A model generated the notes under the pieces. It did no database searches. It was not told where the DNA came from and was given only the letters and a program-made list of their open reading frames with translations. Of a stretch of 64,000 nucleotides of DNA, positions 12,389-64,000 are shown one piece after another. Positions within the stretch are counted from its first letter, which is position 1; each line of letters starts with the position of its first letter. The position numbers and the translations under genes are program-made. Source of the stretch: an uncultured Bacilli bacterium (lineage in GTDB: Bacteria > Bacillota_I > Bacilli_A > RF39 > UBA660). The stretch lies in contig CANQYB010000003.1 of NCBI GenBank assembly GCA_947627975.1, positions 3,588 to 67,587 of the forward strand. Reading direction: 5' to 3'.

Positions 12389-12426
12389 AATAAATTACCT
12401 CTACTATAATAATAGTAATATATTTA

Positions 12427-12442: not shown

Positions 12443-12492
12443 ATATTATGATACTTTTTATGTTAATATTTAACTAGAATTAAGGTGTATTT

Positions 12493-32151: not shown

Positions 32152-32284
32152 CATATTTTATAATAGAAAGGAGAACTATTATGAATTCTTATCAAAGAGC
32201 TTTAAATTATATAAAAAATAATCAAGGCAAATGTCCAACATGTTGTTGTAGTGTTGGTGGTATTGGACCAACTGGACCTACTGG
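32152..32284. repeat. IR-left: 133-bp perfect inverted repeat (ribosome-binding site plus the first 35 codons of the collagen-like gene)
   Basis: Identical to the reverse complement of 34363-34495. Confidence 0.85.
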
Positions 32285-33329
32285 ACCAATCGGAATTGAA
32301 GGATTACCAGGTCCAATGGGAATACCAGGTGATAATGGTCCAACAGGACCTACAGGTCCAACTGGGCCTCAAGGTGAAATAGGAATTACCCCAACTTTTA
32401 CTATTGGAAATGTTACTATTTCTGATGATGATAATTACGCTAGTGTAACTGATACAGGTAATAATTTGGAACATATTTTAAATTTTATTTTTCCAAAAGG
32501 TAGTAATGGGACTGCAGGTCCGACTGGGCCAACAGGTCCTGCTGGAACTAGTGTTACAATTTTAGGATCTTATGATACAGTTGAAAATTTAGAAGCCTCT
32601 CATCCTACTGGAAATTCTGGACAAAGCTATTTAGTTGGTGATAATTTATATGTTTGGTCTAATGAAAATGATAATTGGATTGATGTTGGGCAAATTAGAG
32701 GACCACAAGGAGTACAAGGAGAAATAGGGCCAACTGGAAATACTGGACCACAAGGTATACAAGGACCACAAGGTATTGAAGGAGATATTGGTCCAACTGG
32801 ACCAACTGGGGCAACTGGGCCTACTGGACCTGCTGGCATACAAGAAATAGGTGCTGCTTATTTTGTAACATTTAACAACAATTCAGATGATGGTTATATT
32901 ATTAATAGTAATGAAAGAATTCCTATTACAAGAAAAGAAGTTGACAATACTGATATGTGTATTTTAAATAGCGATAATACCATTAAATTTAATAAAGCTG
33001 GTGTTTATAAAGTAGATTTTATTTTAACAGCTTTTACAAAAACAAATTCTGAATTTGATAAAACTAATGATATAATAGCAATTGGTTTTAAAAAGACTAA
33101 TGAAAATATAGTATATGCTGGAGGAAGTTCTTGGTATGTGTCAGAAACAAATACTAAAATTATAGGTCAAGGTTTATTTATCATTTCAAATCCTGATACT
33201 GAAATGATGGAATTAGTAAATATGTCAAAAACTACTTTAAATTTAAATACACCTCTTTTAGATTATACAACATCTGATTCTTATTTTGTAAATCCCGTTT
33301 TAACAATAATAATTCAATATCTTGGATAA
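32181..33329 (+). CDS. collagen triple-helix repeat protein, BclA-like (interrupted G-X-Y runs plus a C-terminal globular domain)
   Basis: [27 protein letters not shown] leader, GPTGPTGP repeats, a non-collagen insert (TSVTILGSY...[11 protein letters not shown]), a second G-X-Y run and a C-terminal domain of about 150 aa. Confidence 0.8.
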
Positions 33330-33356: not shown

Positions 33357-34466
33357 TTATATATTTTCATCAATTTTCTTAAGACTTAAAGAAGCAGTAA
33401 CTCCTGGTCCCAAGTTTATAATTACATTATTTTCTGTAGCTGATATAACCATATCTAATACATCATCAGCCATTAAAGAAATAATTGTACTTCCATTAAA
33501 ACTAACATTTTCGTTAGGCATAATTTGTTTTACTATAACAGCAGATGGAATCATAACATTATTTTCTCTTATCATTAAACTAATTATGGCAGCCTTGCTA
33601 CCTGTAAAATTAATTGAATAATTTAATTCATATATTCCATCTTGTTCTAATTTAATAGAATTTATAGGAGAATCAATAATATTGATATTATCCATAACTT
33701 CAGTAAGTGGCACTTGTACCCAAGTTCCTGCAGCCATTGTATCTAAAGTTGCAGTTATATTGTTATATTTTCCACCATAGGCACTTAATAATGCTGTTCC
33801 AATTGGGCCTGTTGGTCCTGTTGGCCCTTCTATTCCTTGAATTCCTTGGGGTCCAGGTTCTCCAGGAATACCTTGTAACCCTTGTATTCCTTGTATTCCT
33901 TGGGGTCCTGGAGGTCCTTCTATCCCTTGAGGTCCTGTTGGGCCAATATCTCCTTGAGGTCCTTTTATAGTTCCAACGTTTATCCACTCATTTTTATTAT
34001 CAGACCACACGTATAAATCATCACCAACTAAATAAGCATCTCCTATGTTCCCTGTTAAATGTTCATCTAATAATTCATTTAAATTACTATAAGAACCCAT
34101 AATAGTTACGCTAGTTCCAGCAGGTCCTGTTGGGCCTATTTCTCCTTGTTCTCCTTGAGGACCCGTTTCACCTATTGGTCCTGGTACTCCTTGTAATCCC
34201 TGAATTCCTTGGGGACCTGTTGGCCCAATTTCTCCTTGTTCTCCCTGAATTCCTTGAGGACCCGTTTCTCCCATAGGTCCTGGTACTCCCTGAATTCCTT
34301 GAATACCTTGAGGTCCAGTTGGCCCTGTTTCACCTGTTGGTCCACCACTTGGGCCTGTTGGGCCAGTAGGTCCAGTTGGTCCAATACCACCAACACTACA
34401 ACAACATGTTGGACATTTGCCTTGATTATTTTTTATATAATTTAAAGCTCTTTGATAAGAATTCAT
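33357..34466 (-). CDS. collagen triple-helix repeat protein, BclA-like (paralog)
   Basis: Same 35-aa N-terminal leader, G-X-Y repeats (GPQGIQG), the same interrupting domain (TSVTIMGSY...[11 protein letters not shown]) and a distinct C-terminal domain. Confidence 0.8.
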
Positions 34467-34513: not shown

Positions 34514-35659
<1,146 letters not shown>

Positions 35660-35665: not shown

Positions 35666-35860
35666 ATGCTTAATTTATACCTAAGTGAAGCTATATCTTT
35701 AGCAGATAAAATTATTGTTTTGTCACAAAGACCAAGTAAAATTAAAAAAATATATGAAATAAAACTTTCAAGTAAAAATAACCCAATAGATAAAAGAAAA
35801 GCAAAAGAATTTTCAACCTATTATGATTCAATATGGAAGGACTTAGATATAAATGTCTGA
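35666..35860 (+). pseudogene. ABC transporter ATP-binding protein, C-terminal fragment
   Basis: From 35686 the frame reads SEAISLADKIIVLSQRPSKIKKIYEI, the typical NitT/TauT ATPase C-terminus. It ends in an ATGTCTGA overlap with the permease start. Confidence 0.8.
35686..35696. repeat. right copy of the 11-bp direct repeat TGAAGCTATAT
   Basis: See the left copy. Confidence 0.8.
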
Positions 35861-36638
35861 AAAGCAAATTAAATATTTAAAAAATATCAAAAAAAATAAG
35901 ATATATGTTTTTTTTACCCAATTAAGTATTATTATTATATTTTTTTCATTATGGGAACTTGCAAGTAAATTTAATATTATTGATTCATTTATTTTTTCAT
36001 CCCCCAGTAGAATATTTAAAACTATTATTAATTTAATTAAAGAAAATAATTTATTTATTCATATTTTAACAACATTATATGAAACATTAATTGCCTTTTT
36101 CTTAGGAATAATTATAGGACTATTAGTATCAATTATCTTATATTTATCTAAATTTTTAGCTAAAGTTTTTGATCCATTCTTAACTTTATTAAATTCACTA
36201 CCTAAAGTTGCTTTGGGTCCATTAATTATCATTTGGATAGGAGCCAATAATGGATCAATTATATTTATGGCTTTACTTATAAATGTAATAATAAATATCA
36301 TTACTATTTATAATGGATTTATAACAACTGATGAAAATAAAATTAAATTAATGAAATCTTTTAAAGCAAATAAATTACAAATATTATTTAAATTAGTAAT
36401 ACCATCTTCTTATAATACAATAATTTCATCATTAAAATTAAATATTTCAATGTCTTTAATTGGCGTAATTATGGGAGAATTTTTAGTATCAAAACAAGGA
36501 CTTGGATACTTAATTATTTATGGTAAACAAATATTTAATCTTGATTTAGTTATGAGCTCAATATTTATTTTGGTATTAATTTCATATCTTTTATATAAAA
36601 CAATTTCAATTATAGAAAAAAAATTATTAAAAAATTAA
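35853..36638 (+). CDS. ABC transporter permease (binding-protein-dependent inner-membrane component, NitT/TauT family)
   Basis: Six TM helices and an EAA-like loop; translationally coupled to the ATPase C-terminal fragment. Confidence 0.75.
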   Translation: MSEKQIKYLKNIKKNKIYVFFTQLSIIIIFFSLWELASKFNIIDSFIFSSPSRIFKTIINLIKENNLFIHILTTLYETLIAFFLGIIIGLLVSIILYLSKFLAKVFDPFLTLLNSLPKVALGPLIIIWIGANNGSIIFMALLINVIINIITIYNGFITTDENKIKLMKSFKANKLQILFKLVIPSSYNTIISSLKLNISMSLIGVIMGEFLVSKQGLGYLIIYGKQIFNLDLVMSSIFILVLISYLLYKTISIIEKKLLKN

Positions 36639-41080: not shown

Positions 41081-41938
41081 ATGAATTCATATCAAAGAGC
41101 TTTAAATTATATTAAAAATAATCAAGGAAAATGTCCAACATGTTGTTGTAGTGTAGGAGGCGGAATTGGACCTACTGGACCAACTGGACCAACAGGTCCA
41201 AGTGGAGGACCTACTGGACCTACTGGACCTACTGGACCTACTGGACCTACTGGACCTACTGGACCTACTGGTATTCAAGGATTAATTGGACCAGTTGGAG
41301 CTACAGGAGCAACAGGACCTACTGGACCTACTGGACCTACTGGGCCTACAGGGCCAACAGGTGAAACGGGACCAGCTCCAACTCTTACAGTAGGTGATAC
41401 TACTACTGCTTTACCTGGTGATGAAGCAGCTGTTAATATAGCTCCAAACGGTGATGGAGAATATACATTAACATTTACTGTACCTCAAGGTCCAACTGGT
41501 GCTACTGGAAATGGTCTTGGTGCATATGGAGGATTATATGATACAACACAAAATGCCTACTCATTAACTGCAAATACACCTAGCCAAATAACTTTAGCAA
41601 CTCCAACTCCACTTTCTAATGTTACAACTGGAACTAATTCATTAAATATTAGTGAAGCTGGAACATATGAAATTACTTATGCAGCAAATGTTACTTCAAC
41701 TGATGCCGATACTATTACTTTTTCTGTTAGAAATAGTACTGAAGATATACCTGGAACATCTATTTCCAACACATTCCAAGCAGGTGGACAATATAATTAT
41801 AATGGAAGCATTATAACCGATTTATCTGAAGGTGATGAAATAGATATGGCTTTAGAATCAACTGATGCTGCCGCTGGTAATGTTAATAGTGCAAATTTAA
41901 GTGTTAAATTAATTAGTCCATCTACTATAGCTGAATAA
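41081..41938 (+). CDS. collagen triple-helix repeat protein, BclA-like (third, diverged paralog)
   Basis: Same [27 protein letters not shown] leader, a long (GPT)n run and a C-terminal globular domain. Confidence 0.8.
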
Positions 41939-41966
41939 AAACGAATAAAAATTCGTTTTTTTTCAA
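41939..41966 (+). terminator. rho-independent terminator
   Basis: AAAACGAAT-AAAA-ATTCGTTTT hairpin followed by a T-run. Confidence 0.7.
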
Positions 41967-42005
41967 TTTGTTTTTTCATATATTATAAAGAAAGAAGGTA
42001 TTAAT

Positions 42006-43091
42006 ATTAAAAAAATTTGTGTTTATGCCATATCAAAAAATGAAGAACAATTTGTAGAACGTTTTATGAAAACTGCAAATGAAGCAGATAAAGTATTTAT
42101 TTTAGATACTGGCTCAACTGATAATACAGTTTCTAAATTAAAAAAGTTAGGAGCTATCGTTAAAGAAAAAGAAATTAAACCATGGCGATTTGATGTTGCC
42201 AGAAATGAATCTTTAAAAATAATACCAGACGAATTTGACATATGTGTATGTTTAGATTTAGATGAAGTTATAATGCCTGGATGGAGACAAAAATTAGAAA
42301 AATTATGGGATAAAAATACTACTCGACTTCGTTATAACTATAATTGGCAATTGGATGAAAATGACAAACCAATAATAAATTTTTATATTGAAAAAATCCA
42401 TTTACGAAAAAATTATAAATGGACCCATCCTGTACATGAAGTTTTAACATATGAAAATAAAAATGAAGTAATTAAAACTACAAATGATATTACCGTTAAT
42501 CATTATCCTGATAATACTAAATCTCGTCAAACATATTTACCACTTTTAGAATTATCGGTAAAAGAAGATCCCGAAGATGATAGAAATATGCATTATTTAG
42601 GTCGTGAATACATGTATTACCAGAAATGGAATGAATGCATTGATACATTAATTAAACATCTAAATTTAAAAAATGCTACTTGGAAAGATGAAAGATGTGC
42701 ATCTATGCGATTTATTGCCAGAAGTTATATAAATTTAAAAAGATATGATGAAGCAAAAATGTGGTTAGATAAAGCAATGAAAGAAGCTCCCTATTTAAGA
42801 GATCCCTTTATGGAAAGAGCATTTTTAGAATATCGTTTAAATAATTGGAACGAAGTTGTAAAATATTGTAATAAAGCCCTAGATATTAAAACTCATACAA
42901 AAACATATATAAATGAATCTTTTAGTTGGGACTATTCACCATATGACTTACTTTCTGTTGCTTACTTTAACAAACAAGAATATGATCTTTCACTTTTTTA
43001 TGTCAATAAAGCCCTAGACATGGATAAAAATAATAAAAGATTAAAAGAAAATAAAGAGATTATTTTAAAAAGTTTAAAAACCGCTAACTAA
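42006..43091 (+). CDS. family-2 glycosyltransferase with C-terminal TPR repeats (start codon uncertain)
   Basis: The in-frame translation upstream of the first ATG (42066) reads KKICVYAISKNEEQFVERF, the canonical GT2 N-terminus. A ribosome-binding site (AAGAAGG) lies at 41991-41998. The likely start is ATT at 42006. The DxD region (CLDLDE) and TPR-like repeats follow. Confidence 0.65.
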   Translation: MKKICVYAISKNEEQFVERFMKTANEADKVFILDTGSTDNTVSKLKKLGAIVKEKEIKPWRFDVARNESLKIIPDEFDICVCLDLDEVIMPGWRQKLEKLWDKNTTRLRYNYNWQLDENDKPIINFYIEKIHLRKNYKWTHPVHEVLTYENKNEVIKTTNDITVNHYPDNTKSRQTYLPLLELSVKEDPEDDRNMHYLGREYMYYQKWNECIDTLIKHLNLKNATWKDERCASMRFIARSYINLKRYDEAKMWLDKAMKEAPYLRDPFMERAFLEYRLNNWNEVVKYCNKALDIKTHTKTYINESFSWDYSPYDLLSVAYFNKQEYDLSLFYVNKALDMDKNNKRLKENKEIILKSLKTAN

Positions 43092-43392
43092 ATTGATGTG
43101 AAAAAACTGGTATATTAAAAAGAGAAAAGCTATTTGAACTGAACTTTAAAAGTTGGACAGTTTAATTGTTTAAGGATTGTAACCTGTAATTTATAGGTAA
43201 CAGTCCTTTAATTTTACTTTAATTCTATTATAATTTTAATAAAAATATAGTTATCTATTGCTTTTATTAAATTATCTAATGCTGCCATAAGAAACACTTC
43301 TTTTTGGAAGTGTATGCTACAAATATTTCCTTTAAACTAGTTTTTCATTAATATCTACTCTAAGGGGACAGTTCAAAATAAACGGTTTTTAT

Positions 43393-44346
43393 TTGTTTTA
43401 TTCATGTTATAATAAAATTATGAAAAAATTTAAATATAGTTTAGATAATAAAAGATATCATACATTAAATTACTTTTATAAAAATAAATTTAATAGTAAA
43501 GTATTTAAAATAAGTTTAAATGCTAATTTTTCATGTCCTCATAAAATAAATAATGAAGGTTGCATTTTTTGTTCAAAAATGGGAAGTGGAGATTTTGCTG
43601 GTAATAAATTTAAAAGTCTTTCTGAACAATTTGAAGATGTAAAAAAAATAATGAATAAAAAATGGCAAGGAAAATACATTGGTTATTTTCAAGCTAATAC
43701 TAATACTTATGCTCCACTTCCTATTTTAAAAGAAAAATATGAAGAAATATTAAATAAAGATATTATAGGTCTTTCTATTGCCACTCGACCTGACTGTATA
43801 AAAAAAGAAGTTTACGATTATCTTGAAGATATTAATAAAAGAACCTTTTTAACTATTGAACTAGGTCTTCAATCAATTCATGAAAAAACATTAAAATATA
43901 TCAATCGTGGTCATGATTTAAAATGCTTTGTAGAATGTGTAAACGAACTTAAAAAAAGAAAAATTAATGTTGTAGTTCATATTATTAATGGCCTACCCAA
44001 TGAATCAAAAGAAGATATGATTGAAACAGTAAAATTTTTAAATACATTAAAAATTAATGGAATTAAAATTCACATGCTTAATATACTTAAAAACACTAAA
44101 CTTGAAGAAGTTTATAAAGTTAAACCATTTAAATTATTAACATTAGAAGAATATGTTGATATAGTTTGTACTCAACTGGAATATTTAGATGAAAAAATTG
44201 TTATTCATAGAATTTGTGGTGATGCCAAAAAAAGTGATTTAATTGCTCCCAAATGGACATTAAAAAAATTTGTTGTTATGAATGAAATAGATAAAGAAAT
44301 GAAAAAAAGAAATATTTATCAAGGAGATAAAGTTAATAATTTCTAG
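43393..44346 (+). CDS. radical SAM protein, TIGR01212/YhcC-like family
   Basis: CPHKINNEGCIFCS cysteine cluster and elongator-like radical SAM fold. Confidence 0.7.
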   Translation: MFYSCYNKIMKKFKYSLDNKRYHTLNYFYKNKFNSKVFKISLNANFSCPHKINNEGCIFCSKMGSGDFAGNKFKSLSEQFEDVKKIMNKKWQGKYIGYFQANTNTYAPLPILKEKYEEILNKDIIGLSIATRPDCIKKEVYDYLEDINKRTFLTIELGLQSIHEKTLKYINRGHDLKCFVECVNELKKRKINVVVHIINGLPNESKEDMIETVKFLNTLKINGIKIHMLNILKNTKLEEVYKVKPFKLLTLEEYVDIVCTQLEYLDEKIVIHRICGDAKKSDLIAPKWTLKKFVVMNEIDKEMKKRNIYQGDKVNNF

Positions 44347-44415
44347 CACCTGTAAAGTATTCAAACTGTATATGTAGTAATAATTAAAAAATATGTTATA
44401 ATTTTAATATAAAGG

Positions 44416-45210
44416 ATGTATTTAATTATGAAAAAGAAAAGAAAAATTAAAAAAGTTCTAAAAATATTTTTAATTACTATTATTATAACAATTATTGCAT
44501 TTATTGGAATTGTTGTTTTACTAACAATTATAGATTTAAAACAAGAAAGCAATTTAGAACAAGAAATTATAAATTATAATACTAAAGATTTAGCAAAAGA
44601 TGATTTTACTGTAAAAATAAATACTAAAGGAGATTATGCATATGTAGAAAAAGCAGTAAAAGAATATTATAAAAGTCTATCTGATAATGTCAAAACAATA
44701 AATTCCTATTTAAACAATGAAAAATTTTCTAATCTTTTAACAGTAAATAATTTAGAAAGTGATAGACCTGATTTTACATTTAGTCATAATACTATTAAAA
44801 TTACAAAAAACAATATTAATAAAGCAATTAAAAATATCGATAAATTATGTGATGAAAAAACTATTAAAAATTTACTTGATAAAGATAAGCTTGATGATGC
44901 TGATTATTATTATGATTTTTATTTGGAGTTAATGTATACAAAAAATGATAAAAATAATTTTAAAAATTTAAAAAATAGAACGGATAATCTTGGAACACAA
45001 TTAAATTCTTATTTAGATAAACTAGATGAAACAATTAACTTTTTACAAAAAAATGATAAATCAATTAAATATGAACAAGACAAACAATCAATACTTTTTA
45101 ATTCTCAAACATTATATATAGAATGGAAAAAACAAATTGCAGAATTAGAAGAAATAGCAGAAAATATGGAAAAAGTCGAAAATACTGAAAATTCACCAAA
45201 TAAAGTTTAA
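44416..45210 (+). CDS. hypothetical membrane-anchored protein
   Basis: N-terminal TM helix followed by a coiled-coil-rich extracytoplasmic domain. Confidence 0.5.
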   Translation: MYLIMKKKRKIKKVLKIFLITIIITIIAFIGIVVLLTIIDLKQESNLEQEIINYNTKDLAKDDFTVKINTKGDYAYVEKAVKEYYKSLSDNVKTINSYLNNEKFSNLLTVNNLESDRPDFTFSHNTIKITKNNINKAIKNIDKLCDEKTIKNLLDKDKLDDADYYYDFYLELMYTKNDKNNFKNLKNRTDNLGTQLNSYLDKLDETINFLQKNDKSIKYEQDKQSILFNSQTLYIEWKKQIAELEEIAENMEKVENTENSPNKV

Positions 45211-45261
45211 CTTTCCAGATTATAAAATACTCAAATTTTTTATTAGCACAAGAAGTTATAG

Positions 45262-45290
45262 AGTAATAAATGCTAACAGAAATGTTAGTT
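45262..45290 (+). terminator. rho-independent terminator
   Basis: GCTAACA-GAAA-TGTTAGT hairpin followed by TTTTTTTT. Confidence 0.6.
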
Positions 45291-45428
45291 TTTTTTATTG
45301 CAGTATAATAACTTTAATAATAATTAATATATTGTTATTAAAATGTAAAATTTATAAATAAAAAAAGATTATTTTATAAATAATAAACTATTTATGCTAT
45401 AATTTTAATATAAAAAAGGAGTTATTAA

Positions 45429-46040
45429 ATGAGTAAGAAAATTTTGAAATATATATTAATTTTTATAGGTATAATATTTAATATTTTTAATTTTATATTA
45501 ATTGCTAGTTTGATCTTTATAATTTTTTTACTATTTTTATCAATTCCTACTCAAAGAGATAAATTAGCTTATACATATAAAGATAAAAATAAAAGATTAG
45601 CATATTTCCAAGAGAAAAAGGAAGATTTTGAATATTTTTCTCAATTTTTATTAGATAATGATGAAATTGAATCAATTAATTACCAAAAAAATTTTAAATG
45701 TGACTCCATTGAAAACGAAATAACAATAAATGTATCAGATGATATAATAATGTGTAAAAAAAGAAGTACCAATGATAATAAGTCATATGATTTTAATACT
45801 ATTAAAGAAAAGTATAAAAATTTAAATTTAGAGAAAATAATTAAAATAAAAGGTATTGATTATAATGTTTATAAATTAAAATTTATTTTATTTGGGACTA
45901 ATCGTGTTGAAGTATCATATAACTATTGTGTATCGCCTGAGTGTAAAAGCAAAGATTATATTGATAGTGAAGGCAATTCCTATAAAAATAAAATAGATGA
46001 TAAATGGTATACTATGTACGATGGTAATCCTGGACTATAA
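45429..46040 (+). CDS. hypothetical membrane-anchored protein
   Basis: N-terminal TM helix followed by a Cys-containing extracytoplasmic domain. Confidence 0.5.
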   Translation: MSKKILKYILIFIGIIFNIFNFILIASLIFIIFLLFLSIPTQRDKLAYTYKDKNKRLAYFQEKKEDFEYFSQFLLDNDEIESINYQKNFKCDSIENEITINVSDDIIMCKKRSTNDNKSYDFNTIKEKYKNLNLEKIIKIKGIDYNVYKLKFILFGTNRVEVSYNYCVSPECKSKDYIDSEGNSYKNKIDDKWYTMYDGNPGL

Positions 46041-46162
46041 TCTTTGAAGATGATAATTCATATAAAATTACAGATAAAAATGTAACAAATTATAAATAAA
46101 AAAAGATTATTTTATAAATAATAAAATATTTATCTTATAATTTTAATATAAAGGATGTATTT

Positions 46163-47185
46163 ATGAAATTAATTAAAAAAATTAAAAATAAATTAATGGA
46201 AAATCCAAAAAAAACATTTATTATTTGCAATATAATTTTAGCTTCATTATTTTATGTAACATTTACATTTGATTTCTTACTTGATTTTAAAATTTGGATT
46301 ATATTTATAGTCATATTTTATAGAATTCTATTAATATTCATAACAATTTTTAATTGTTACTACATTTATAAACATCCAAAAGATGAATTAATAATATTAG
46401 CTTTTTTGGCGACAATTTTATCAATTCCTTTATTCTTAATTTGTACAGGAGCTTATCTATTAATGATTTTAACTTATATAATATTATTTATTATCATTAA
46501 TAAGCCAGAAAATGTAATACAAAGTACTTTAAAAAATATTATATTTATTATATGTAATATATCATTAATTTTATTATATTATATTACGAATGGAAAAGAT
46601 TTAATAATTGAGATATATCCTATAATTTTTATGGTTATAATAATATTAATAACAATTTTTAATTGCTATTATATTTATAAAAATCCTAAAAACAATCTTG
46701 TGGGAGCAATAGCCATTACTTCTATTGTTTTTTCATTCCCTTTAAGTGATGTTTTTCCTATTTTATATCTTCTAATAATTTTATCTTATTTACTATTTTT
46801 TATAATAAATAAAAAAATAGTTTTAATATTCATTGGAATAGTAGTCTTTATTTTGACATTAACTTTTTCTATAGAATCTTATATTTATAACCATAATAAT
46901 GAAGATTCAAACAAAGCAGTTGATATAGGTTTTTCACCTACTAAAAAGTATTATGGTTACTGTGAAAGTTATAAATTAGCAAATAATAAGTTAGAAAACA
47001 AATTTTATTGGGGTAAGAAAAAACTACCAATAGATATTTTTAATACAATTGATCCACTTGAACAAAATATAAATATACCAACATGTAAAAAAGGTAAAAT
47101 AAAATGGATAACAGATGATGAAATAGAAGTAAATGGAAAAAAAATATCAATAAAAAATAAGTGGGAAGAAAGATTTGAAAATTAA
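46163..47185 (+). CDS. polytopic membrane protein with an internal duplication
   Basis: Two modules of about 110 aa each, both carrying the I(T)IFNCYYIYK(H/N)PK motif. Confidence 0.5.
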   Translation: MKLIKKIKNKLMENPKKTFIICNIILASLFYVTFTFDFLLDFKIWIIFIVIFYRILLIFITIFNCYYIYKHPKDELIILAFLATILSIPLFLICTGAYLLMILTYIILFIIINKPENVIQSTLKNIIFIICNISLILLYYITNGKDLIIEIYPIIFMVIIILITIFNCYYIYKNPKNNLVGAIAITSIVFSFPLSDVFPILYLLIILSYLLFFIINKKIVLIFIGIVVFILTLTFSIESYIYNHNNEDSNKAVDIGFSPTKKYYGYCESYKLANNKLENKFYWGKKKLPIDIFNTIDPLEQNINIPTCKKGKIKWITDDEIEVNGKKISIKNKWEERFEN

Positions 47186-47266
47186 AAAAAGTTACTTTAT
47201 AGAGTTCATATTAAAAAAAATACATAAATTTTAAATTTAATAAATATAATTATTAAAAGGTGATTT

Positions 47267-48193
47267 ATGAATACAATTGATTATAATTTTAGGGAGTTAA
47301 TTACCCAAATAAAAGAAAAAACTATAGAAGAAATTTTTAATGATATTAAAAATAATTATTTAAATATTTCTCCTACTATCCAAAATTCTATAGAAGATTT
47401 TTTTGGTAAATTTAATTATTGGGGAAAATTAAAAAGATCTGAAAATATTTTTGATGAATTACATAATAGAGCATTATCTTTAAAAAATCACATTAATGAT
47501 TATATATGGTTATATGACAATTTAAATGATTATCGCTCTAAACGTGTTTTATACGCTATTTTAAATAATTGGTATAAGTTTGACTTTAAAAATTTAGAAA
47601 TTTGTAGAGAAACTAATAATTCTCATTATTTTGATTTAGATTTGATAAAATGTGATAAAAATGAAATCTTTGTAGATATTGGTTCCTATACAGGAGATAC
47701 AATTATAGATTATTTTAATAATTACGGGAGTAATAATTATAAAAAAATATATTGTTATGAAATTACTAAAAAAATTTATACTATGTTAGAAAATAACTTA
47801 AAATATTATAAAAATATTATTTTAAGAAATAAAGCTGTATCAGATAAAAATGAAACTTTATTTTTAAAAGAAAATAAATGTGACAATTCAGCAAATTGTC
47901 TTTCTGAAATGGGAAACCAAATAATTGAAGCAGTTACTTTAGATAGTGACATAAAAGAAAAAATATCTTTACTAAAAATGGATATTGAAGGATATGAATT
48001 TAAAGCTTTAAATGGTTCTATCAATCATATTAAAAATGATAAACCAAAATTATTAATTTCAGTTTATCATAATCATGAAGATATATGGAAAATTCCTTTA
48101 TTTATAAAAAAAATAAATCCCAATTATAATTTATATTTAAGATATTATGGGAATAATATTTTTCCAACAGAAATTGTTTTAATTGCAATTTAA
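47267..48193 (+). CDS. FkbM-family SAM-dependent methyltransferase
   Basis: VDIGSYTGDT and LKMDIEGYE motifs. Confidence 0.7.
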   Translation: MNTIDYNFRELITQIKEKTIEEIFNDIKNNYLNISPTIQNSIEDFFGKFNYWGKLKRSENIFDELHNRALSLKNHINDYIWLYDNLNDYRSKRVLYAILNNWYKFDFKNLEICRETNNSHYFDLDLIKCDKNEIFVDIGSYTGDTIIDYFNNYGSNNYKKIYCYEITKKIYTMLENNLKYYKNIILRNKAVSDKNETLFLKENKCDNSANCLSEMGNQIIEAVTLDSDIKEKISLLKMDIEGYEFKALNGSINHIKNDKPKLLISVYHNHEDIWKIPLFIKKINPNYNLYLRYYGNNIFPTEIVLIAI

Positions 48194-57118: not shown

Positions 57119-57284
57119 TTTAACTCCTTACTTCTATTATAACTATAACATTAATTTCAAAATAAATAAATATTTTTTAAAAAAATAGCAAAATATTTGT
57201 TAATAAATTACTATAAAAAAGATTGACAAAAAAAAAACTAAGTGATAATATAAAAAGCAAAATTTATTTAGGGGGAATATATTT

Positions 57285-58727
57285 ATGGGAATAAATTTTG
57301 AAGATTTAATTGAAAATTTAGAAACATTAAGTTTGGAAGAATTGAAAAAACTATCAAATACAATAAATCAATTTGAAAAAGATAAAAACAATGAAAGCTC
57401 TAAAATAGATCAAGATTATTGTGAAAAGGAAAAGGATGAATTAGATTTTAGTTTTCCAAAACCAAATAATGAAAATCAAGAAGGACTAAGACTAGTTTCA
57501 ACTAAACATGCTGATAAAAAATTATCTAAAAAAGCTAGAGTATTTTTAAAAACTTTGGGAATTAGTACTATAATAATTTTAATTATACTTTATTTATTTT
57601 ATATGTATTCAATACTTAATAAAACAGTAGATAAAGATGATGATTTATCTAGTAAATATTTTAGTAATAGTAAAAGTATTAGTATAGAAAATACAACAGA
57701 ATTTCTAAATAGTAATGAAAAAGATATTATTAAAGCTTTTGATGTTACCAATGATAGTGATGTAGAAAAACAAGCAGATATTATTGCTTCATATGTAAAT
57801 ATTTCGAATGATTTAGATAATAATATGAACTATAACAAGGACTTTATTGAAGATGTAATTAGAATTATCAATGGGGTAGCTCCTAAAAATAAAGAAATTA
57901 CTTTAGATGATGTAATTGATTTTACATGCAATTGGATTAATAAAGTATGTATAAATTCTACTAATTACATTGGTGGAGTTGAGGAATATAAAAATACTAA
58001 TCCAGAACTACATCTAGCTAAATTATTTAGTGAAGATACAATTGACTATGAAGTTCTTAAAGAATTTGATTCTTGTGTTAATATGGCTACACATAATAAA
58101 GACTTTAAGGAAATATATAAAGGTTCTAATGGTATATTAAAAATATTTTATGAAACTCTTGAATTAAATGGTAAAGAAACTAAATTTGGACTTGCAAATA
58201 GAAATAGCATGTCTAAGGGAGGCATTGCAACATTAGAATTAGGAATTATTAATGCTATTCCACTTTTAGAAGAAACAGATAAAAAACAAAAATTAGAATA
58301 TAAAGAAAACCAAGCAGTTGTTGATAAAAATAAAAATGAAAATGAAATCCATGGATATAATAACGAAGTTACTGATGGCATGAATATTATAAAATTAAAA
58401 TTAAATCCATTATCAAAAGATGAATATGAAAACTATTTTTCAAGTAATTTTGAATATGTTTATGGAATTTCATATGATAATGCTAAAAAAATTGCATTAA
58501 CTTCTAAAGATGAAAGAGATTTTTATAATAATATTAAAAATTTAACTAATTGTAATGTAAAAGTTGAATATGAAAATCAAATGATTGGTTTTGAAACTTT
58601 TGCTAGATTTTTCTTTAGTTATAATTCAGGTGAAATTCAAACAGCTGAAGAAAGTGATTTAAATCAAGATTTAAGAGATTTAGAGGAAACAAGAATTAGT
58701 AATTGTGCTAAGTCTAAAACAAAATAA
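57285..58727 (+). CDS. hypothetical type-II membrane protein (480 aa)
   Basis: Cytoplasmic N-terminus of about 90 aa, a single TM helix (ISTIIILIILYLFYMYSIL), and a large extracytoplasmic domain with no recognisable fold. Confidence 0.55.
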   Translation: MGINFEDLIENLETLSLEELKKLSNTINQFEKDKNNESSKIDQDYCEKEKDELDFSFPKPNNENQEGLRLVSTKHADKKLSKKARVFLKTLGISTIIILIILYLFYMYSILNKTVDKDDDLSSKYFSNSKSISIENTTEFLNSNEKDIIKAFDVTNDSDVEKQADIIASYVNISNDLDNNMNYNKDFIEDVIRIINGVAPKNKEITLDDVIDFTCNWINKVCINSTNYIGGVEEYKNTNPELHLAKLFSEDTIDYEVLKEFDSCVNMATHNKDFKEIYKGSNGILKIFYETLELNGKETKFGLANRNSMSKGGIATLELGIINAIPLLEETDKKQKLEYKENQAVVDKNKNENEIHGYNNEVTDGMNIIKLKLNPLSKDEYENYFSSNFEYVYGISYDNAKKIALTSKDERDFYNNIKNLTNCNVKVEYENQMIGFETFARFFFSYNSGEIQTAEESDLNQDLRDLEETRISNCAKSKTK

Positions 58728-58747
58728 TTAGTTAGGGGGAAAATAAA

Positions 58748-61441
58748 ATGTACGAAGAAAAAAGAAAAGCTATTAACTGGAAAAGCTTAATAATTAAAAT
58801 TTTAATTTTAGCTTTAATTGTTTTTTTAGTTATTTGGGTAATTCAAGTAATTAATAATAGAAAAAATAATAATTCAAATAATAAAATATTTAATCAAAAT
58901 ATTGAAAATATGAACGATGCAGCTGAAAGTTACTATAAATCAAATGAGTTGCCAAAAAATATTGGTGACAAAAATAAAATTACATTACAAGATATGATTG
59001 ATAATAATTTGTTAATGGAATTTACTGATAAAAATGGTAATTTTTGTGATGAAAAAAACAGTTATGCTCAAATTACTAAAACAAAAGAAAATTTATATCA
59101 ATTAAAAGTTTTACTTTCTTGTGATGATAATACAGATTATTTGGTAAAAGATTTTAATATTGAAAATAGTAGCTCTGAAACTAAAGATACTACTGAAACA
59201 AAAGATAATATTGAAAATAATAAACAAGAAAAAAATCAAGAAGAAAGTAAGTCTGTTGAAGAAATAAATGAAGAAACAAATAATGTTGATTATATTGATG
59301 AAAAAGTTCAAGAACAAACTTATACTACTTATGAAAAGAAAAAAGTATATACATATACAACTCAATATGAATTTAGAAAATTACTAGAAGAATCAACTAC
59401 AAAATATACTTGTCCTGATGGATATTCTCTAATGGGTAATAAATGTTTTAAATCTATTATTGAATCGGAAATAAATGCTACTTTAGAATATTATGAGGAT
59501 AAAGATATTATTACAGATCCACTAGAAAAAATTGAAGATAGTAAAAAAGAATATACAGATCCAATAAAAAATACTACTGAACCAACTTACTCATGTCCAA
59601 GTGGTTATGAAAAAACTGGTAGTGGAATTAATACTAAATGTTATAAAATTTCAACTACTTCAAAAGTATCAACTTCTGCTACTAAAACATGTCCAAGTGG
59701 TTATACACTTTCTGGATCTTCTTGTATAAAATATGATAATGCTTTATCAACTCCTGCTAGTGCTAATTGTCCAAGTGGCTATGCAAAAATAAATAATTCT
59801 TGTATTAAATATAATAAAGCTGATGTTATAAATGCTACTGCTAAATGTTCAAGTGGTTATACATTATCTGGATCTTCTTGTGTTAAATATGATAAAGCTG
59901 CAACTATAAATGCTACTGCTAAATGTCCAAGTGGTTATAAATTGTCTGGATCTTCTTGTATTAAATATGATACAGCTACTAAAATTTCTGCAAAAATTTC
60001 TTCTTATAGTTGTTCTAAAGGATCATTAAGCGGTTCTAAATGTTATAGTTGTCCAAGTGGTTATACTCAAAGTGGTAAAGGTGCAAACATCTCATGTTAC
60101 ATAAATGTACCAAAATATAATACATCTTATGGAAACTGGTATGTTTATACAACTAGAAAATCTACAACTGCTTTATATACTTATTCTAATAATACTGAAA
60201 AAATGGTATATACAGGTTCTAAACTTGAAAAGACTTGCTCTAAATGTTATACAAGAAGAACATATTATTATTATACTATATATAGAAGAAATGTTTATAC
60301 AAACACAACTTACACAAAATCTTATGGAAAAGTAACAGTAACTAACGCTACTCCTAATTATAAATGTTCTAAAGGTTCTAGAGATGGTTCTTCTTGCTAC
60401 TACTGTAAATCTGGTACTGCTACAGGTAGTGGTAAAAATACTAAGTGTAAAATTACTAATAAAAATCTTACTTATTCTTGTTCTAAAGGTTCTAAGGACG
60501 GTACTTCTTGCTACTACTGTAAATCTGGTACCGCTACAGGTAGTGGTAAAAATACTAAGTGTAAAATTACTAATAAAAATCTTACTTATTCTTGTTCTAA
60601 AGGTTCTAAGGACGGTACTTCTTGCTACTACTGTAAATCTGGTACTGCTACAGGTAGTGGTAAAAATACTCAATGTAAAGTTACTACTAACCTAACTTAT
60701 TCTTGTTCAAAGGGTTCTAAGGATGGTACTTCTTGCTACTATTGTAAATTTGGTACTGCTACAGGTAGTGGTAAAAATACTAAGTGTAAAGTTAGTACAG
60801 GAGTACAATACAGTTGTAAAAATGGTACTTTATATCAAAATAAATGTTATAGTTGTCCAACTAATTATAAACAATCATCATCAACATTTAATTCTAGTTG
60901 TTTAAAAACTACTTATGTAAATTCAATTAAAAATAATGGTACAACAATATTATCTTGTCCAAGTGGCTATACTCAAGAAGGTAGTGGAAATAATATTAAA
61001 TGTTATAAAAATATAACAGGTAAAACATCTTATTATTGTGAAGATCCATTATCTAAGCTTGGAGCAGATAATAAATGTCATAAGAATGTTAAGGGTGAAG
61101 TAAAAGGATATGTTTGTCCAGAAGGATATGCATTAAAAGACCAAAAATGTTACAAAACAACAAATGAAGAAGTTGATGCAAAGGAAGAAACTACTGAAGC
61201 TAAATATGATTATACATGGAACAATAATGAAACATTAGAAGGTTGGGAATTTACTGGTAATACTAGAACTATTACTAATGAATCAGAAGTAACTATCGAA
61301 TCTCCAAAAACTGGTTTATTTGATTCAGATAATATTTCCAAAAATATTATATTAATTGGATTCTTAACTATGGGATTAGGTTTTATTTCTTACTTAATAA
61401 TAAGGCTGTTTAAAAATAAAGAAAAAAATATTATTCAATAA
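58748..61441 (+). CDS. large Cys-rich repeat protein with N- and C-terminal TM helices (897 aa)
   Basis: N-terminal TM helix, more than 20 C-x(8-10)-C hairpin modules (CPSGY-x-LSGSSC-IKY) and a C-terminal TM helix plus KNKEKN tail; contains an in-frame 114-bp tandem repeat array. Confidence 0.7.
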   Translation: MYEEKRKAINWKSLIIKILILALIVFLVIWVIQVINNRKNNNSNNKIFNQNIENMNDAAESYYKSNELPKNIGDKNKITLQDMIDNNLLMEFTDKNGNFCDEKNSYAQITKTKENLYQLKVLLSCDDNTDYLVKDFNIENSSSETKDTTETKDNIENNKQEKNQEESKSVEEINEETNNVDYIDEKVQEQTYTTYEKKKVYTYTTQYEFRKLLEESTTKYTCPDGYSLMGNKCFKSIIESEINATLEYYEDKDIITDPLEKIEDSKKEYTDPIKNTTEPTYSCPSGYEKTGSGINTKCYKISTTSKVSTSATKTCPSGYTLSGSSCIKYDNALSTPASANCPSGYAKINNSCIKYNKADVINATAKCSSGYTLSGSSCVKYDKAATINATAKCPSGYKLSGSSCIKYDTATKISAKISSYSCSKGSLSGSKCYSCPSGYTQSGKGANISCYINVPKYNTSYGNWYVYTTRKSTTALYTYSNNTEKMVYTGSKLEKTCSKCYTRRTYYYYTIYRRNVYTNTTYTKSYGKVTVTNATPNYKCSKGSRDGSSCYYCKSGTATGSGKNTKCKITNKNLTYSCSKGSKDGTSCYYCKSGTATGSGKNTKCKITNKNLTYSCSKGSKDGTSCYYCKSGTATGSGKNTQCKVTTNLTYSCSKGSKDGTSCYYCKFGTATGSGKNTKCKVSTGVQYSCKNGTLYQNKCYSCPTNYKQSSSTFNSSCLKTTYVNSIKNNGTTILSCPSGYTQEGSGNNIKCYKNITGKTSYYCEDPLSKLGADNKCHKNVKGEVKGYVCPEGYALKDQKCYKTTNEEVDAKEETTEAKYDYTWNNNETLEGWEFTGNTRTITNESEVTIESPKTGLFDSDNISKNIILIGFLTMGLGFISYLIIRLFKNKEKNIIQ
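60365..60817 (+). repeat. in-frame tandem repeat, 4 units of 114 bp (one unit is 111 bp), inside the Cys-rich protein gene
   Basis: Units encode CSKGSKDGTSCYYCKSGTATGSGKNTKCKITNKNLTYS; units 2 and 3 are near-identical at the DNA level. Confidence 0.85.
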
Positions 61442-61452
61442 AAAAAATTAAG

Positions 61453-64000
61453 TTAATGTAACTTAATTTTTTTATATTTAGTAAAATACTTTCTTAAAAT
61501 ATCAAAAGGAATTACAGAAAAAGCTAAAAATAATACTATCATAAATTCATAAAAATTTATACCATATGTTCTAAAAAGATTTCCCCCAAAATATATTAAA
61601 TATATTTGTATTAAAAAAATAATTGAAAATATGATTATGAATATTTTATTATCTTTAAGATGAGATAAAATATTAATTCTTTCAGTTCTTGCATTAAATG
61701 CATTAAAAATACCAATAAATATAAATAAAGCAAAATAAGCAGTTAAAAGATATTTAAAATTACTATCAGGGCGAATTAATTGTTTAAATATAGGTAATTT
61801 TAAAAATAATATACAAAGTAAAGATGAATATAAGCCAGTTATTAGTATCTCTTGATACATATATTTATTTATAATAGGTTCATTTTTTTTCTTTGGATTT
61901 TCATACATATATTCTTTTAAAGGTGGTTCATATGAAAATGCCACACCTGCAAAAGTATCCATAATCATATTAATCCATAACATTTGCATAATAGTAACTG
62001 GTGTATTTATTCCAATAAATGGCCCTAAAATAGACATAATTAAAGCACATAAATTTACAGTTAATTGAAATATGATAAATTTTCTGATACTTTTAAATAT
62101 TGTTCTACCAAATAATATAGCTTTACTTATAGATAAAAAATTATCATCTAATATTACAATATCGGATGCTTCTTTTGCTACTTCCGTTCCACTTCCCATT
62201 GCAAAACCAACATCACATTTTTTTAAAGCTGGTGCATCGTTCACACCATCCCCTGTCATTCCTACAACTAAGTTAAGTTCTTGAGCTATTTTTACAAGCC
62301 GAGATTTATCAGTAGGCAAAGCTCTTGAAATAACTTTTAATTTTGGAAAAATACTTTTTAATTGATTATCAGTTAATTTATTAAATTCATCACTATTTAA
62401 AACAATATCACCATCATTTAATAAATTTACTTCTTTAGCAACTGCTAGTGCCGTATCAGTGGCATCTCCAGTAATCATGATAGTTTGAATTCCTGCTTTT
62501 AAAACTAAATCTATTCCCATAATTGCTTCTTCTTTTATTTCATCTTTAATTAATATAAATCCTAAGAAAGTCATTTTTTTATTTTCTTCAATAGCCAATG
62601 ATATTACTCTTATTCCTTTTTTTGTATAAAGACTAATATTGTCTAAAATATTTTCTTTATTTTTTAGCAGTAACTTTTTACCATATTTATCATAGCAATA
62701 CTGGCAATTTGGTAATATTTTTTCTGTTGCACCTTTTATAAAAGTCAACTTAGAATTTTTAAATAATACAGTACAGCTAGAAAATTTATTTTTGGAATTA
62801 AAAGTTAAATTTTCTAATATTTTATATTTAATATTTGAATTACTTCCAGCAAATTTTAATATAGCTTGATCAGTAATATTACCTCCCACTATATTTCCAA
62901 AGTCATCAAAATCAGATTCATTATTGTAAGTTAAATTTAAAAAAACAAGATTATGCAGTTCGCTATATTTTTTTAAATCAGATAATTTCTTATATGACTC
63001 TAAAAATGGTGTAACATAACCAATTACTTCTAATTGACCTTTTGTAATGGTTCCTGTTTTATCTGAAAGTAATACATTTAAAGAACCAGCGGTTTCAATT
63101 CCTACCATTTTTCTTACTAAAACATTATTCTTTAACATTTTTTTAACATTTGATGATAAAACTAAAGTAATCATCATTGGCAATCCTTCGGGAACTGCTA
63201 CTACAATTACAGTTACACATAATGTTAAAGAATAAATAAAATAATTAAATATTAAAGGAAGATTAGTTATAGTATCTTTTATTTTTAGCAAATCAAAATT
63301 ATTTTTTATTATAATTTCTGAAAACAAATAAGAAAAAGTAACAAGAAAAGCACCAATATATCCTATTTTACTTATAATTTTAGCTAAATGTCTTAAACGT
63401 ATTTTTAATGGACTATCTGGAGAATCTTCTTGTAATTCATTAAAAACTTGGCCATATAACGTTTTATAACCGACTTTTTCCACTTTTAATAATGCTTGTC
63501 CATTAAAAATTACACTACCTCTAAAACATCGGGTATTTAAAGCTTTAGATATTTCTTTTGATTCCCCATTTAATGCAGATTCATCAACCAAAACTTCTCC
63601 TTTTATAATTACACCATCAGCTGGCACTTTATCTCCAGTAGATAATATAACTATATCATTTACTACTACTTCATCAATATTAATAATTTTTTTAATGCCA
63701 TTTCTTATAACTTTGCAGTTAATTTTTGATGATTCTTCTTGCATTTTTAAAAAAGCTTTTTCGGAACCATACTCTGAAATGCTTGATATTAACGATGCTA
63801 AAAATATTGCAATTAAAATTCCCAAAGTTTCATACCAATCAAAATTTTTAAAAAGAAAAATAACTTTAATTGATAAAGCTACCAACAAAATTTTAATAAT
63901 AGGATCACCTAATGATTCAATTAATAACTTAATAAAACTATTTTTTTTCTTGGAAATTAATGAATTAGAGCCATACTTTTTTTTTGATTCAATTACTTCT
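61453..64000 (-). CDS. P-type cation-transporting ATPase (Ca2+/P2-type); the 5' end lies beyond the window
   Basis: DKTGTIT phosphorylation motif, GDGVNDAPALKK hinge, TGD and TM helices. The reading frame stays open upstream of the track TTG start through to the window end. Confidence 0.85.
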   Translation of the reverse strand, partial: EVIESKKKYGSNSLISKKKNSFIKLLIESLGDPIIKILLVALSIKVIFLFKNFDWYETLGILIAIFLASLISSISEYGSEKAFLKMQEESSKINCKVIRNGIKKIINIDEVVVNDIVILSTGDKVPADGVIIKGEVLVDESALNGESKEISKALNTRCFRGSVIFNGQALLKVEKVGYKTLYGQVFNELQEDSPDSPLKIRLRHLAKIISKIGYIGAFLVTFSYLFSEIIIKNNFDLLKIKDTITNLPLIFNYFIYSLTLCVTVIVVAVPEGLPMMITLVLSSNVKKMLKNNVLVRKMVGIETAGSLNVLLSDKTGTITKGQLEVIGYVTPFLESYKKLSDLKKYSELHNLVFLNLTYNNESDFDDFGNIVGGNITDQAILKFAGSNSNIKYKILENLTFNSKNKFSSCTVLFKNSKLTFIKGATEKILPNCQYCYDKYGKKLLLKNKENILDNISLYTKKGIRVISLAIEENKKMTFLGFILIKDEIKEEAIMGIDLVLKAGIQTIMITGDATDTALAVAKEVNLLNDGDIVLNSDEFNKLTDNQLKSIFPKLKVISRALPTDKSRLVKIAQELNLVVGMTGDGVNDAPALKKCDVGFAMGSGTEVAKEASDIVILDDNFLSISKAILFGRTIFKSIRKFIIFQLTVNLCALIMSILGPFIGINTPVTIMQMLWINMIMDTFAGVAFSYEPPLKEYMYENPKKKNEPIINKYMYQEILITGLYSSLLCILFLKLPIFKQLIRPDSNFKYLLTAYFALFIFIGIFNAFNARTERINILSHLKDNKIFIIIFSIIFLIQIYLIYFGGNLFRTYGINFYEFMIVLFLAFSVIPFDILRKYFTKYKKIKLH

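Follow-up and report, generated by a model that had tools for sequence, protein, structure and literature searches.

A 64,000-nucleotide stretch of DNA from an uncultured Bacilli bacterium of the RF39 lineage (UBA660; assembly GCA_947627975.1, contig CANQYB010000003.1), referred to below as the window, contains at 58748-61441 of the forward strand a gene for an 897-residue cysteine-rich protein. From its sequence, this protein is best read as a member of a large, undescribed family of envelope or surface proteins of RF39-type gut Bacilli. The target protein, as it will be called here, has all four family traits: an N-terminal membrane anchor followed by a characteristic N-domain, arrays of C-x10-C hairpins, a conserved C-terminal motif, and a membrane partner encoded upstream. 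The family, the hairpin module and the pairing with a J-domain partner gene are new here. What would such a protein do? The answer that we prefer, and that we put forward tentatively, is that it serves as a membrane-to-wall tether or stalk of adjustable length. The N-terminus would stay in the membrane as a signal-anchor, with about 21 hairpins and the conserved beta-rich segments forming the ectodomain, and a sortase like SrtB of Clostridioides difficile would process the C-terminal signal and join the distal end to peptidoglycan, making the protein a tether or stalk between the two; without a sortase, the C-terminal segment would simply be anchored in the membrane. Recombination or slippage between 113-bp perfect repeats within the gene would add or remove one 38-residue double hairpin per event, altering the length of the ectodomain while the reading frame would never be broken.

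The protein search covered 5.8 billion proteins and gave at least 618 relatives (618 among the candidates that were scored); those that carry a name are all hypothetical proteins, except for one, P0048, that is labelled 'TraN'. A profile scan placed relatives in at least 343 species-representative genomes. Their records are metagenome-assembled genomes labelled Bacilli, Tenericutes, Erysipelotrichaceae, 'Coprobacillus sp. CAG:605', 'Clostridium sp. CAG:628', 'Mycoplasma sp. CAG:956', Candidatus Coprovivens and Candidatus Ventrenecus; Candidatus Coprovivens belongs to order RF39, family CAG-1000 (PMC8035907). Overall identity among the relatives is only 30-35%. Common to them are a cytoplasmic tail, a transmembrane (TM) helix and a domain of about 100 residues with an invariant cysteine pair (the N-domain), as well as arrays of the hairpin module, a Tyr-rich beta segment and a C-terminal motif of the form Y-x-Y-x-W-S...L-x-G-W-x-x-T-G-x-T-[KR], shortly after which most members end. 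Homologues are present, then, and none of them is of known function; the combination of an invariant repeat number with homologues of known function, which an earlier note on this DNA had named as telling against its view of the gene as a variable surface protein, is not what was found.

The N-domain was also searched alone with an exhaustive profile, which matched 1,944 cluster representatives at E<=1e-3 (944 of them at E<=1e-10), always at protein positions ~1-140. This novel domain defines a superfamily in which it is always N-terminal. A search with the C-terminal 97 residues and a single-protein scan of genome contigs returned nothing useful. The wider superfamily includes a sister group that keeps the N-domain (~41% identity) and a related C-terminal motif (Y-x-D-Y-K-W-S...G-Y-x-M-T-G-N-K-R) in proteins of about 780 residues with a different, cysteine-poorer middle (19 Cys). 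In this group, a short open reading frame (ORF) of 107-132 residues abuts the gene start instead of the long upstream partner gene of the main family. The sister-family loci are these:

L070, L075, L077, L081 and L082, around 5970-8350 in each: gene of the sister family.

Several other identities were considered and rejected. The TraN label on P0048 has no basis in the TraN profile, which gave its best relative 16.4 bits against a cutoff of 796 and did not match the target, and the setting among chromosomal housekeeping genes is not one of conjugation. A pilin-like N-domain was suggested by the long helix, the beta-sheet and the cysteine pair, but no prepilin motif and no Foldseek or sequence match was found; the target starts with MYEEKRKAINWKSLIIK, without a prepilin leader, and the family consensus G-I-N-W-K-D is not kept in it. 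A phage or plasmid origin likewise fails: there was no phage match, and plasmid matches were limited to the repeat module in unrelated giant proteins.

The protein is laid out as follows, all features being on the forward strand:

58748-61441, +: coding sequence of the target protein, 897 residues, ATG start, stop codon included.
58784-58855, +: N-terminal TM anchor, residues 13-36, hydropathy up to 3.3, with a short conserved cytoplasmic tail (M-Y-E-E...I-N-W-K) before it.
58880-59158, +: N-domain, residues ~45-137, an extension of the helix packed on a small beta-sheet, with the C100-C125 pair.
59165-59332, +: acidic and polar low-complexity linker, residues 140-195, with a predicted local distance difference test score (pLDDT) of ~30 and short repeats of 12-21 bp found by Tandem Repeats Finder (TRF).
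59411-60097, +: hairpin array A, residues 222-450, eight disulfide-type hairpins, including an older 78-bp (26-residue) array; 24-34 bits per unit with the hidden Markov model (HMM) of the module.
60113-60310, +: Tyr-rich beta core, residues 456-521, with a CSKC pair; three long strands, pLDDT 87-95.
60365-60814, +: recent tandem array, units U1-U4, four double hairpins of 38 or 37 residues, C-x9-C-x2-C-x13-C.
60419-60645, +: 113-bp perfect direct repeat (60419-60531 = 60533-60645).
60815-61150, +: rest of hairpin array B, residues 690-801, one degenerate double unit and three more hairpins.
61202-61300, +: C-terminal beta motif, K-Y-D-Y-T-W-N...L-E-G-W-E-F-T-G-N-T-R, conserved.
61301-61438, +: putative sortase-type sorting signal, with SPKTG at 61301-61315, a spacer at 61316-61342, hydrophobic residues 866-888 and the tail KNKEKNIIQ.

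Cysteine makes up 5.1% of the protein (46 residues) and 7.6% of residues 222-801, against a mean of 1.02% and a maximum of <=2.8% in the other 47 ORFs of the window. Read consecutively, the 46 cysteines form 23 pairs: C100-C125 in the N-domain, the CSKC pair at residues 497 and 500, and 21 hairpins of the form C-x9-14-C. In an alignment of 103 relatives, W11 and K17 at the anchor are near-invariant, W464, Y479, C500, Y507 and Y509 are conserved in the Tyr-rich core, and C718, C737, C752, C764, C777, C790 and C801 are invariant. Most relatives have an additional G-C-x3-C-x4-C cluster directly after the N-domain and odd cysteine totals (35, 39, 43...), so at least one of their cysteines must be unpaired or paired between chains, or else the cluster binds metal. 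The cluster is missing from the window protein (around residues 137-142), having been lost in its subclade.

The full-length AlphaFold 2 (AF2) model consists almost entirely of beta-hairpins, with a mean pLDDT of 69 and a predicted template modelling score (pTM) of 0.29, and has no significant neighbour in the PDB. The confident regions are the N-domain, residues 196-345, 456-521 (pLDDT 87-95) and 620-850; the linker and U1-U2, with few aligned homologues, stay below 50. These low values count against the proposed stalk insofar as the model leaves a rod-like shape unestablished. The N-domain itself is modelled at pLDDT 88, with a single continuous helix (residues 11-65) running from the anchor into the domain and lying on the small sheet. 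It matched no solved structure by sequence, and none by Foldseek (best E = 0.14). Because the helix runs unbroken into a folded domain and no AXA-type signal-peptide cleavage site is visible on reading the sequence, the N-terminal helix is probably kept as a signal-anchor, with an N-in/C-out topology.

Whether the length of this protein can change is a question for its repeats. TRF reports a period of 114 bp in 3.8 copies at 60365-60794 (93% matches, score 720) and an older 78-bp array in 3.7 copies at 59689-59977 (76%). The recent array divides into the following units:

60365-60478, +: U1, 114 bp.
60479-60592, +: U2, 114 bp.
60593-60703, +: U3, 111 bp.
60704-60814, +: U4, 111 bp.

U1 and U2 are 95.6% identical, U2 and U3 91.2%, and U1 and U3 88.6%, with U4 at 81-83% to the others; the 113-bp perfect direct repeat extends across U1-U3. 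The description of the protein in the earlier note, as a cysteine-rich, modular and exported protein with a recent in-frame tandem expansion, is borne out by the 46 cysteines, the TRF array and the perfect repeat, and the C-x9-C-x2-C-x13-C spacing of the 38-residue unit is confirmed. Its four tandem units are there, although two of them are 111 rather than 114 bp long, and the two that it took to be almost identical, U2 and U3, are indeed similar but less so than U1 and U2.

In the family as a whole, hairpin counts range from 7 to 25, and cysteine totals step by four between species (35, 39, 43, 47, 55). The nearest species cluster lacks two 26-residue and two 38-residue modules that are present in the target. 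Tandem repeats can be recognized at the DNA level in 33 of 81 family genes, every period being a multiple of 3, and in seven of the 81 the arrays are at least 90% identical, which implies independent recent duplications. Module number has thus clearly changed, and repeatedly so, over evolution by in-frame tandem duplication.

Does the number of units also vary within the species? The target coding sequence occurs, exact, on several independently assembled contigs, and the 4-unit form was assembled at least four times. Assembly coverage is only ~9-11x. One contig (ERZ27249541) has a 3-unit allele of 859 residues, short by exactly one unit through a deletion at 60419-60532. This allele lends some substance to the copy-number variation that the earlier note had expected, but stops short of proving it. 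Outside the array, the contig and the window agree at every one of 9,729 bp (100% identity), and the differences, the 114-bp deletion and one single-nucleotide polymorphism, both fall within the array. Moreover, contigs from two other datasets (Logan) break off at precisely the base with which the perfect repeat begins, 60419. Because of the identical 9.7-kb background and the breaking of other assemblies at the perfect repeat, the 3-unit form may be an assembly collapse just as it may be very fast genuine variation; no further alleles were found in the metagenome scan. That the sole length difference within the species could be an artefact weighs against a length-adjustable stalk. The alternative, that the array is a stable relic, the 3-unit allele a short-read collapse and the protein of fixed length within a species, is a serious one that comes close to being probable. 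Besides the two Logan assemblies, the low coverage and the repeated recovery of four units, it draws on the coincidence of the deletion with a perfect repeat longer than typical assembly k-mers, and on the sister species cluster, whose full-length members are only 773 or 774 residues long. On the other hand, recombination and slippage are known to act on perfect direct repeats such as this one of 113 bp, a genuine event would also appear as a deletion of one period, and the independent recent duplications in six other species, together with the four-cysteine steps between species, show the process operating in the family.

A distinct strain (L090, DRR848907) differs from the window at two positions within the gene up to its contig end, 59728 and 59739, both inside the older array of 26-residue modules (59689-59977). 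This hints that point variation or gene conversion, too, may be concentrated in the repeat arrays of the gene.

The second question is how the distal end is held. The earlier note described the protein as anchored at both ends, and its two hydrophobic segments (residues 13-36 and 866-888) and basic tail are as described; a SPKTG motif in front of the C-terminal segment, however, makes wall sorting an alternative to a second membrane anchor. The last 46 residues comprise SPKTG (residues 852-856), the nine-residue spacer LFDSDNISK, a hydrophobic stretch of 23 residues (866-888) and KNKEKNIIQ, and so have, to judge by the sequence, the complete three-part architecture of a cell-wall sorting signal. 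SPKTG is cleaved in vitro by C. difficile SrtB, between T and G (PMC4155245). In the five closest lineages, whose proteins are 33-53% identical, the motif reads SPKTG, SP[HR]TG, TPNTG, SPNTG and TPNTD: P and T never change, x is unconstrained, and only the last of the five lacks G. When 1,047 ORFs, from 1.06 Mb of DNA of the lineage, were scanned for the pattern, the sorting signal appeared in the target subclade alone, which argues that it is not a chance feature of AT-rich proteins.

Linkage to the wall by a sortase is accordingly our slight and tentative preference over a plain second membrane anchor, to which a somewhat smaller but still appreciable likelihood attaches. In that alternative, the C-terminal TM segment and basic tail would end in the cytoplasm, SPKTG would be unused or coincidental, and the ectodomain of 830 residues would form a loop held at both ends; the two hydrophobic segments and the distribution of charges fit such an N-in/C-in topology. 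A number of observations weigh against sorting and on the side of the double anchor. No sortase was recognized, either by a TLxTC motif in the window or by a tblastn match to Staphylococcus aureus SrtA in 1.03 Mb of window and related loci, a search that covered a minor part of the organism's own genome, and among the 1,047 ORFs none outside the subclade carries a sorting signal. One lineage has TPNTD and not TG, six more distant members have a C-terminal TM segment and basic tail without PxTG, and most of the family has no C-terminal anchor of any kind. Classical sortase substrates lose their N-terminal signal peptide; the N-terminus of the target looks retained. RFN20 and ML615J-28, two neighbouring orders, are reported to have lost srtA/B (PMC10868615); no such loss is given there for RF39, so that the report can be cited on either side. 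What speaks against an idle motif is that SPKTG, the very sequence cleaved by C. difficile SrtB, stands at the canonical distance before the hydrophobic segment, that P, T and mostly G are kept while x and the flanks vary between such divergent proteins, and that the organism makes peptidoglycan. The resemblance to C. difficile SrtB substrates covers the identical SPKTG, a short acidic spacer, a hydrophobic segment and a basic tail (PMC4155245, PMC5569036), and both come from anaerobic Bacillota of the gut; the rest of the target protein is unrelated, most family members lack the signal, and the corresponding sortase was not found in ~1 Mb. With either mode of anchoring, the distal end is tethered to the envelope in the target subclade.

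The third question concerns the hairpins and their cysteines. A consensus built from 1,558 distinct family modules reads T-x-Y-[TS]-C-P-x-G-[YG]-T-L-[NS]-G-x-x-C-x-K-T, with C-x10-C by far the commonest spacing. The earlier note could not place the module in a domain family, and neither Pfam nor NCBIfam gave an above-cutoff match for the target protein. The likeness to EGF and EB hairpins that it saw holds at the level of the motif and not as membership. The best EGF-type Pfam match of the target is EGF_Tme5 (E = 0.63, 10.4 bits, below the cutoff); some relatives pass the cutoff of Pfam cEGF (PF12662), but only through summed partial matches to profile positions ~4-20 of 24, the C-terminal hairpin; and a proteobacterial homologue has a sub-threshold match to EB (PF01683). 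A profile of the module, the check that the note had proposed, matched among the sequences of solved structures only the sushi/CCP hairpin 'Y-x-C-x-x-G-Y-x-L-x-G' and 6ee9, a 25-residue chain named as a stress-response peptide, 'CPSGYVRRGTFC', with the same C-x10-C spacing. We take the 6ee9 peptide to be a single-disulfide insect ENF cytokine that folds as a disulfide-closed beta-hairpin. A search with a profile of module pairs returned nothing useful. The target module shares with EGF, EB and 6ee9 the motif 'C-P-x-G-Y-x-L-x-G-x-x-C' (and with 6ee9 the spacing), whereas EGF has six cysteines in three disulfides, against two per module (four per double unit) in the target, which has no N-terminal EGF sub-domain. 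The resemblance is probably convergent, or else extremely remote.

Tandem copies of the module also turned up, unexpectedly, when plasmids were searched with tblastn; they occur in two records from Proteobacteria:

Shewanella aestuarii plasmid pPN3F2_1 (L093), 3812-13615: giant protein WP_167680171.1, 3,267 residues, 152 Cys, with Big_3_3 (Ig-like) and PKD domains.
Alteromonas mediterranea plasmid CP004847.1 (L092), 5753-9421: ORF of 1,223 residues, 94 Cys, unannotated in the plasmid table.

The HMM built from Bacilli modules only found 21 modules of at least 8 bits in the Shewanella protein and 13 in that of Alteromonas, and none in 15 shuffled controls. The tandem C-x10-C arrays match the target module down to the flanks ('NATASCPSGYTRSGSTC' vs 'NATAKCPSGYKLSGSSC'); the giants differ in belonging to another phylum, in being encoded on plasmids and in lacking the N-domain, the C-terminal motif and the partner gene. 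The hairpin is thus a cross-phylum bacterial repeat that no curated library models. The Shewanella gene adjoins lepB and a gene for TrbC-type conjugative pilus assembly.

Presumably, the two cysteines of each pair are joined by a disulfide that closes a beta-hairpin, in the manner of the C-terminal subdomain of EGF. This is suggested by the pairing pattern, by the resemblance to the cEGF hairpin and to 6ee9, and by the use of the module in exported proteins of aerobic bacteria. The gut lumen, however, is reducing, and no gene for a Dsb-like protein or thiol oxidase was found in the window. The disulfides themselves are deduced only, and Firmicutes generally avoid cysteine in exported proteins, for which they have no general disulfide system (PMC2823432). 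Could the cysteines instead bind a metal (Zn or Fe) or stay reduced, so that the protein would bind metal or buffer redox conditions at the surface, in keeping with life in the anoxic gut? NrdD marks the organism as an anaerobe, and the 38-residue unit holds four cysteines, including C-x2-C, which, with the same points on oxidation, gives this idea some footing; it is nonetheless improbable. The main module has two cysteines ten residues apart with the Gly/Pro turn pattern of a closed beta-hairpin, as in the presumed single-disulfide peptide 6ee9, and it matches the last disulfide loop of cEGF. Aerobic marine Proteobacteria use it in giant exported proteins, and the target shows neither CxxC...CxxC zinc-ribbon spacing nor histidine partners (one His in 897 residues).

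The target gene does not stand alone. The neighbouring elements that bear on its expression are these:

57223-57251, +: candidate operon promoter of near-consensus sigma-A type, TTGACA, 17-nt spacer, TAATAT, with an upstream TG.
57285-58727, +: partner gene, 480 residues, single-pass, TM segment at about residues 84-105, ending 20 bp before the target gene.
61441-61473: AT-only 15-bp perfect hairpin with an A-run before and a T-run after it, between the target gene and a convergent P-type ATPase gene.

Given the 20-bp gap on the same strand, the strong Shine-Dalgarno sites (that of the target is AGGGGG at 58734-58739, 8 nt before the ATG), the promoter before the partner gene and the terminator after the target gene, the two form a two-gene operon. 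The promoter matches the consensus at 10 of 12 positions including the TG and is the top-scoring site of the region in a consensus scan, in which the count of promoter-like sites did not exceed that in shuffles. The terminal hairpin has a dG of -10.7 kcal/mol (z = -5.5), and none of 200 shuffles folds as well; a terminator consensus scan skipped it because such a scan demands G+C pairs. Probably it acts as an intrinsic terminator in both directions, serving the convergent P-type cation ATPase gene as well.

The spacer of the promoter holds an A10 tract (57228-57237) between the -35 and the extended -10 elements. A homopolymer in a promoter spacer is the geometry that gives phase variation in mycoplasmas. 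The tract is the same in three assemblies, and it is missing from the orthologous promoter of the nearest species. The idea of a phase-variable gene, raised in the earlier note, was rejected: the A10 tract is invariant, the periods of the tandem repeats are all multiples of 3, and the coding sequence contains no simple repeat or homopolymer that would shift the frame.

The pairing with an upstream gene extends through the family. At 71 of 80 loci, the family gene is preceded on the same strand by an ORF whose end lies no more than 400 bp away, and at about 60 of them this ORF has 300-650 residues, ends 2-30 bp upstream and usually has one TM segment. An iterative HMM showed 43 upstream ORFs to be homologous to the 480-residue partner of the window, over residues 31-301 (the TM span and the extracellular part). 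Among 40 aligned partners, 14 have a Pfam J-domain at the cytoplasmic N-terminus, and the profile of the partner family matched solved J-domains of DnaJ with E = 5e-10; the window partner itself has no Pfam match and no J-domain. The cassette is thus composed of a J-domain or other cytoplasmic head, a TM segment and an ectodomain in the first gene, followed by the N-anchor and the hairpin-repeat protein in the second. To go by the J-domain alone, the partner may recruit DnaK to the site of export. Membrane J-domain co-chaperones are exemplified by DjlA of Escherichia coli. In Mycoplasma pneumoniae, the J-domain co-chaperone TopJ is linked to a surface structure (PMC4923136). Like these, the partners of many lineages combine a J-domain with an adjacent membrane span, an arrangement suggesting that DnaK is brought to the membrane at the place where a large surface protein is synthesized; the parallel is conceptual only, since there is no sequence kinship beyond the J-domain and the window copy lacks it.

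What kind of surface protein, then, is this? The role is most likely structural or adhesive, that of a component that evolves fast and seems exposed and length-adjustable and yet is conserved lineage-wide; an enzymatic role is unlikely. In its mode of evolution, the target probably resembles the variable-length surface proteins of Gram-positive bacteria. With the periscope proteins (SasG, Rib, Sgo_0707; PMC8201768) it shares near-identical in-frame DNA repeats through which recombination could alter the length of the protein, a C-terminal wall-sorting signal and fast-evolving exposed repeats. It differs from them in that only 4 of its ~21 modules are near-identical, in units that are 38-residue double hairpins instead of folded domains of 80-130 residues, and in an N-terminus that is a retained membrane anchor with a conserved domain and not a free ligand-binding tip. 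Variation in length between strains is also undemonstrated in the target, both of its ends are tethered to the envelope, and a rod shape is not established.

Cysteine-rich proteins are typical of the outer layers of spores. A spore-envelope protein, that is, a cross-linked part of the forespore membrane or exosporium, is nevertheless very unlikely here, for although the window encodes three BclA-like collagen-repeat proteins and RF39 is predicted to include sporulating species (PMC10868615), the promoter is of near-consensus sigma-A type, coat proteins are made in the mother-cell cytoplasm and the target has a membrane anchor and a sorting signal, and the family sits in housekeeping synteny across hundreds of species.

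The tether or stalk reading can be carried further, into a proposal that is improbable as a whole. The gene pair would be a lineage-wide envelope system in which the J-domain partner recruits DnaK, and the cysteine-rich protein is oxidatively folded outside a strict anaerobe and bridges membrane and wall at a length tuned by its units. The bridge would reach a thin, teichoic-acid-poor wall, covalently via sortase in the subclade and non-covalently via the C-terminal motif elsewhere. If true, a protein with eukaryote-like disulfide modules would tether membrane to wall in a phylum known to exclude cysteine from what it exports. RF39-type Bacilli are common and uncultured in human and animal gut microbiomes, and their surfaces are almost unstudied. 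The family seems to be among their most conserved yet fastest-evolving exposed proteins, which makes it a candidate for interaction with the host, with phages or with antibodies, and possibly a marker for strain typing. The family shows the two-cysteine EGF-like hairpin to be a bacterial building block that can be reused: giant proteins of Proteobacteria have it too, and domain databases lack it. A biochemical question arises as well: how would strictly anaerobic Bacillota fold some 20 extracellular disulfides? As to how such proteins are exported, the conserved link with a membrane J-domain partner offers a lead.

The locus is ordinary chromosome with housekeeping synteny. On one flank lie rplJ/A/K, nusG, a sigma factor, a SpoU-type methyltransferase (Pfam SpoU_methylase), mini-RNase III, ybbR, cdaA and a DUF3048 gene, and on the other the P-type cation ATPase. 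Because the window encodes peptidoglycan enzymes (Mur ligase, VanY, a PBP5-type carboxypeptidase of family Peptidase_S11 and a PBP2-type transpeptidase) and the anaerobic ribonucleotide reductase NrdD, the organism is, by its gene content, a walled anaerobe; RF39 has been predicted to be thin-walled (PMC10868615).

Elsewhere in the window, whose G+C content is ~23%, two regions with collagen-repeat genes stand out:

32181-33329, +: collagen-repeat gene, Collagen only.
33357-34466, -: collagen-repeat gene, Collagen and BclA_C.
34514-35647, -: serine recombinase, Resolvase, Recombinase and Zn_ribbon_recom.
41081-41938: third BclA-like collagen-repeat gene.

The first three sit between the ATPase and permease genes (31511-32122 and 35853-36638) of an operon for an NMT1-type ABC transporter, and G+C rises there to as much as 0.32, against ~0.23 elsewhere; the segment 32181-35647 looks like an inserted mobile or intervening element. 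After the third collagen-repeat gene come genes for a TPR-glycosyltransferase and a radical SAM enzyme, then three ORFs without a Pfam match (44416-47185) and a gene for an FkbM-type methyltransferase. This whole stretch, 41081-48193, has a very low G+C content of 0.18-0.19. Possibly, this cluster serves to glycosylate the collagen-like protein; it also hints at spore or exosporium-like surface filaments in this organism.

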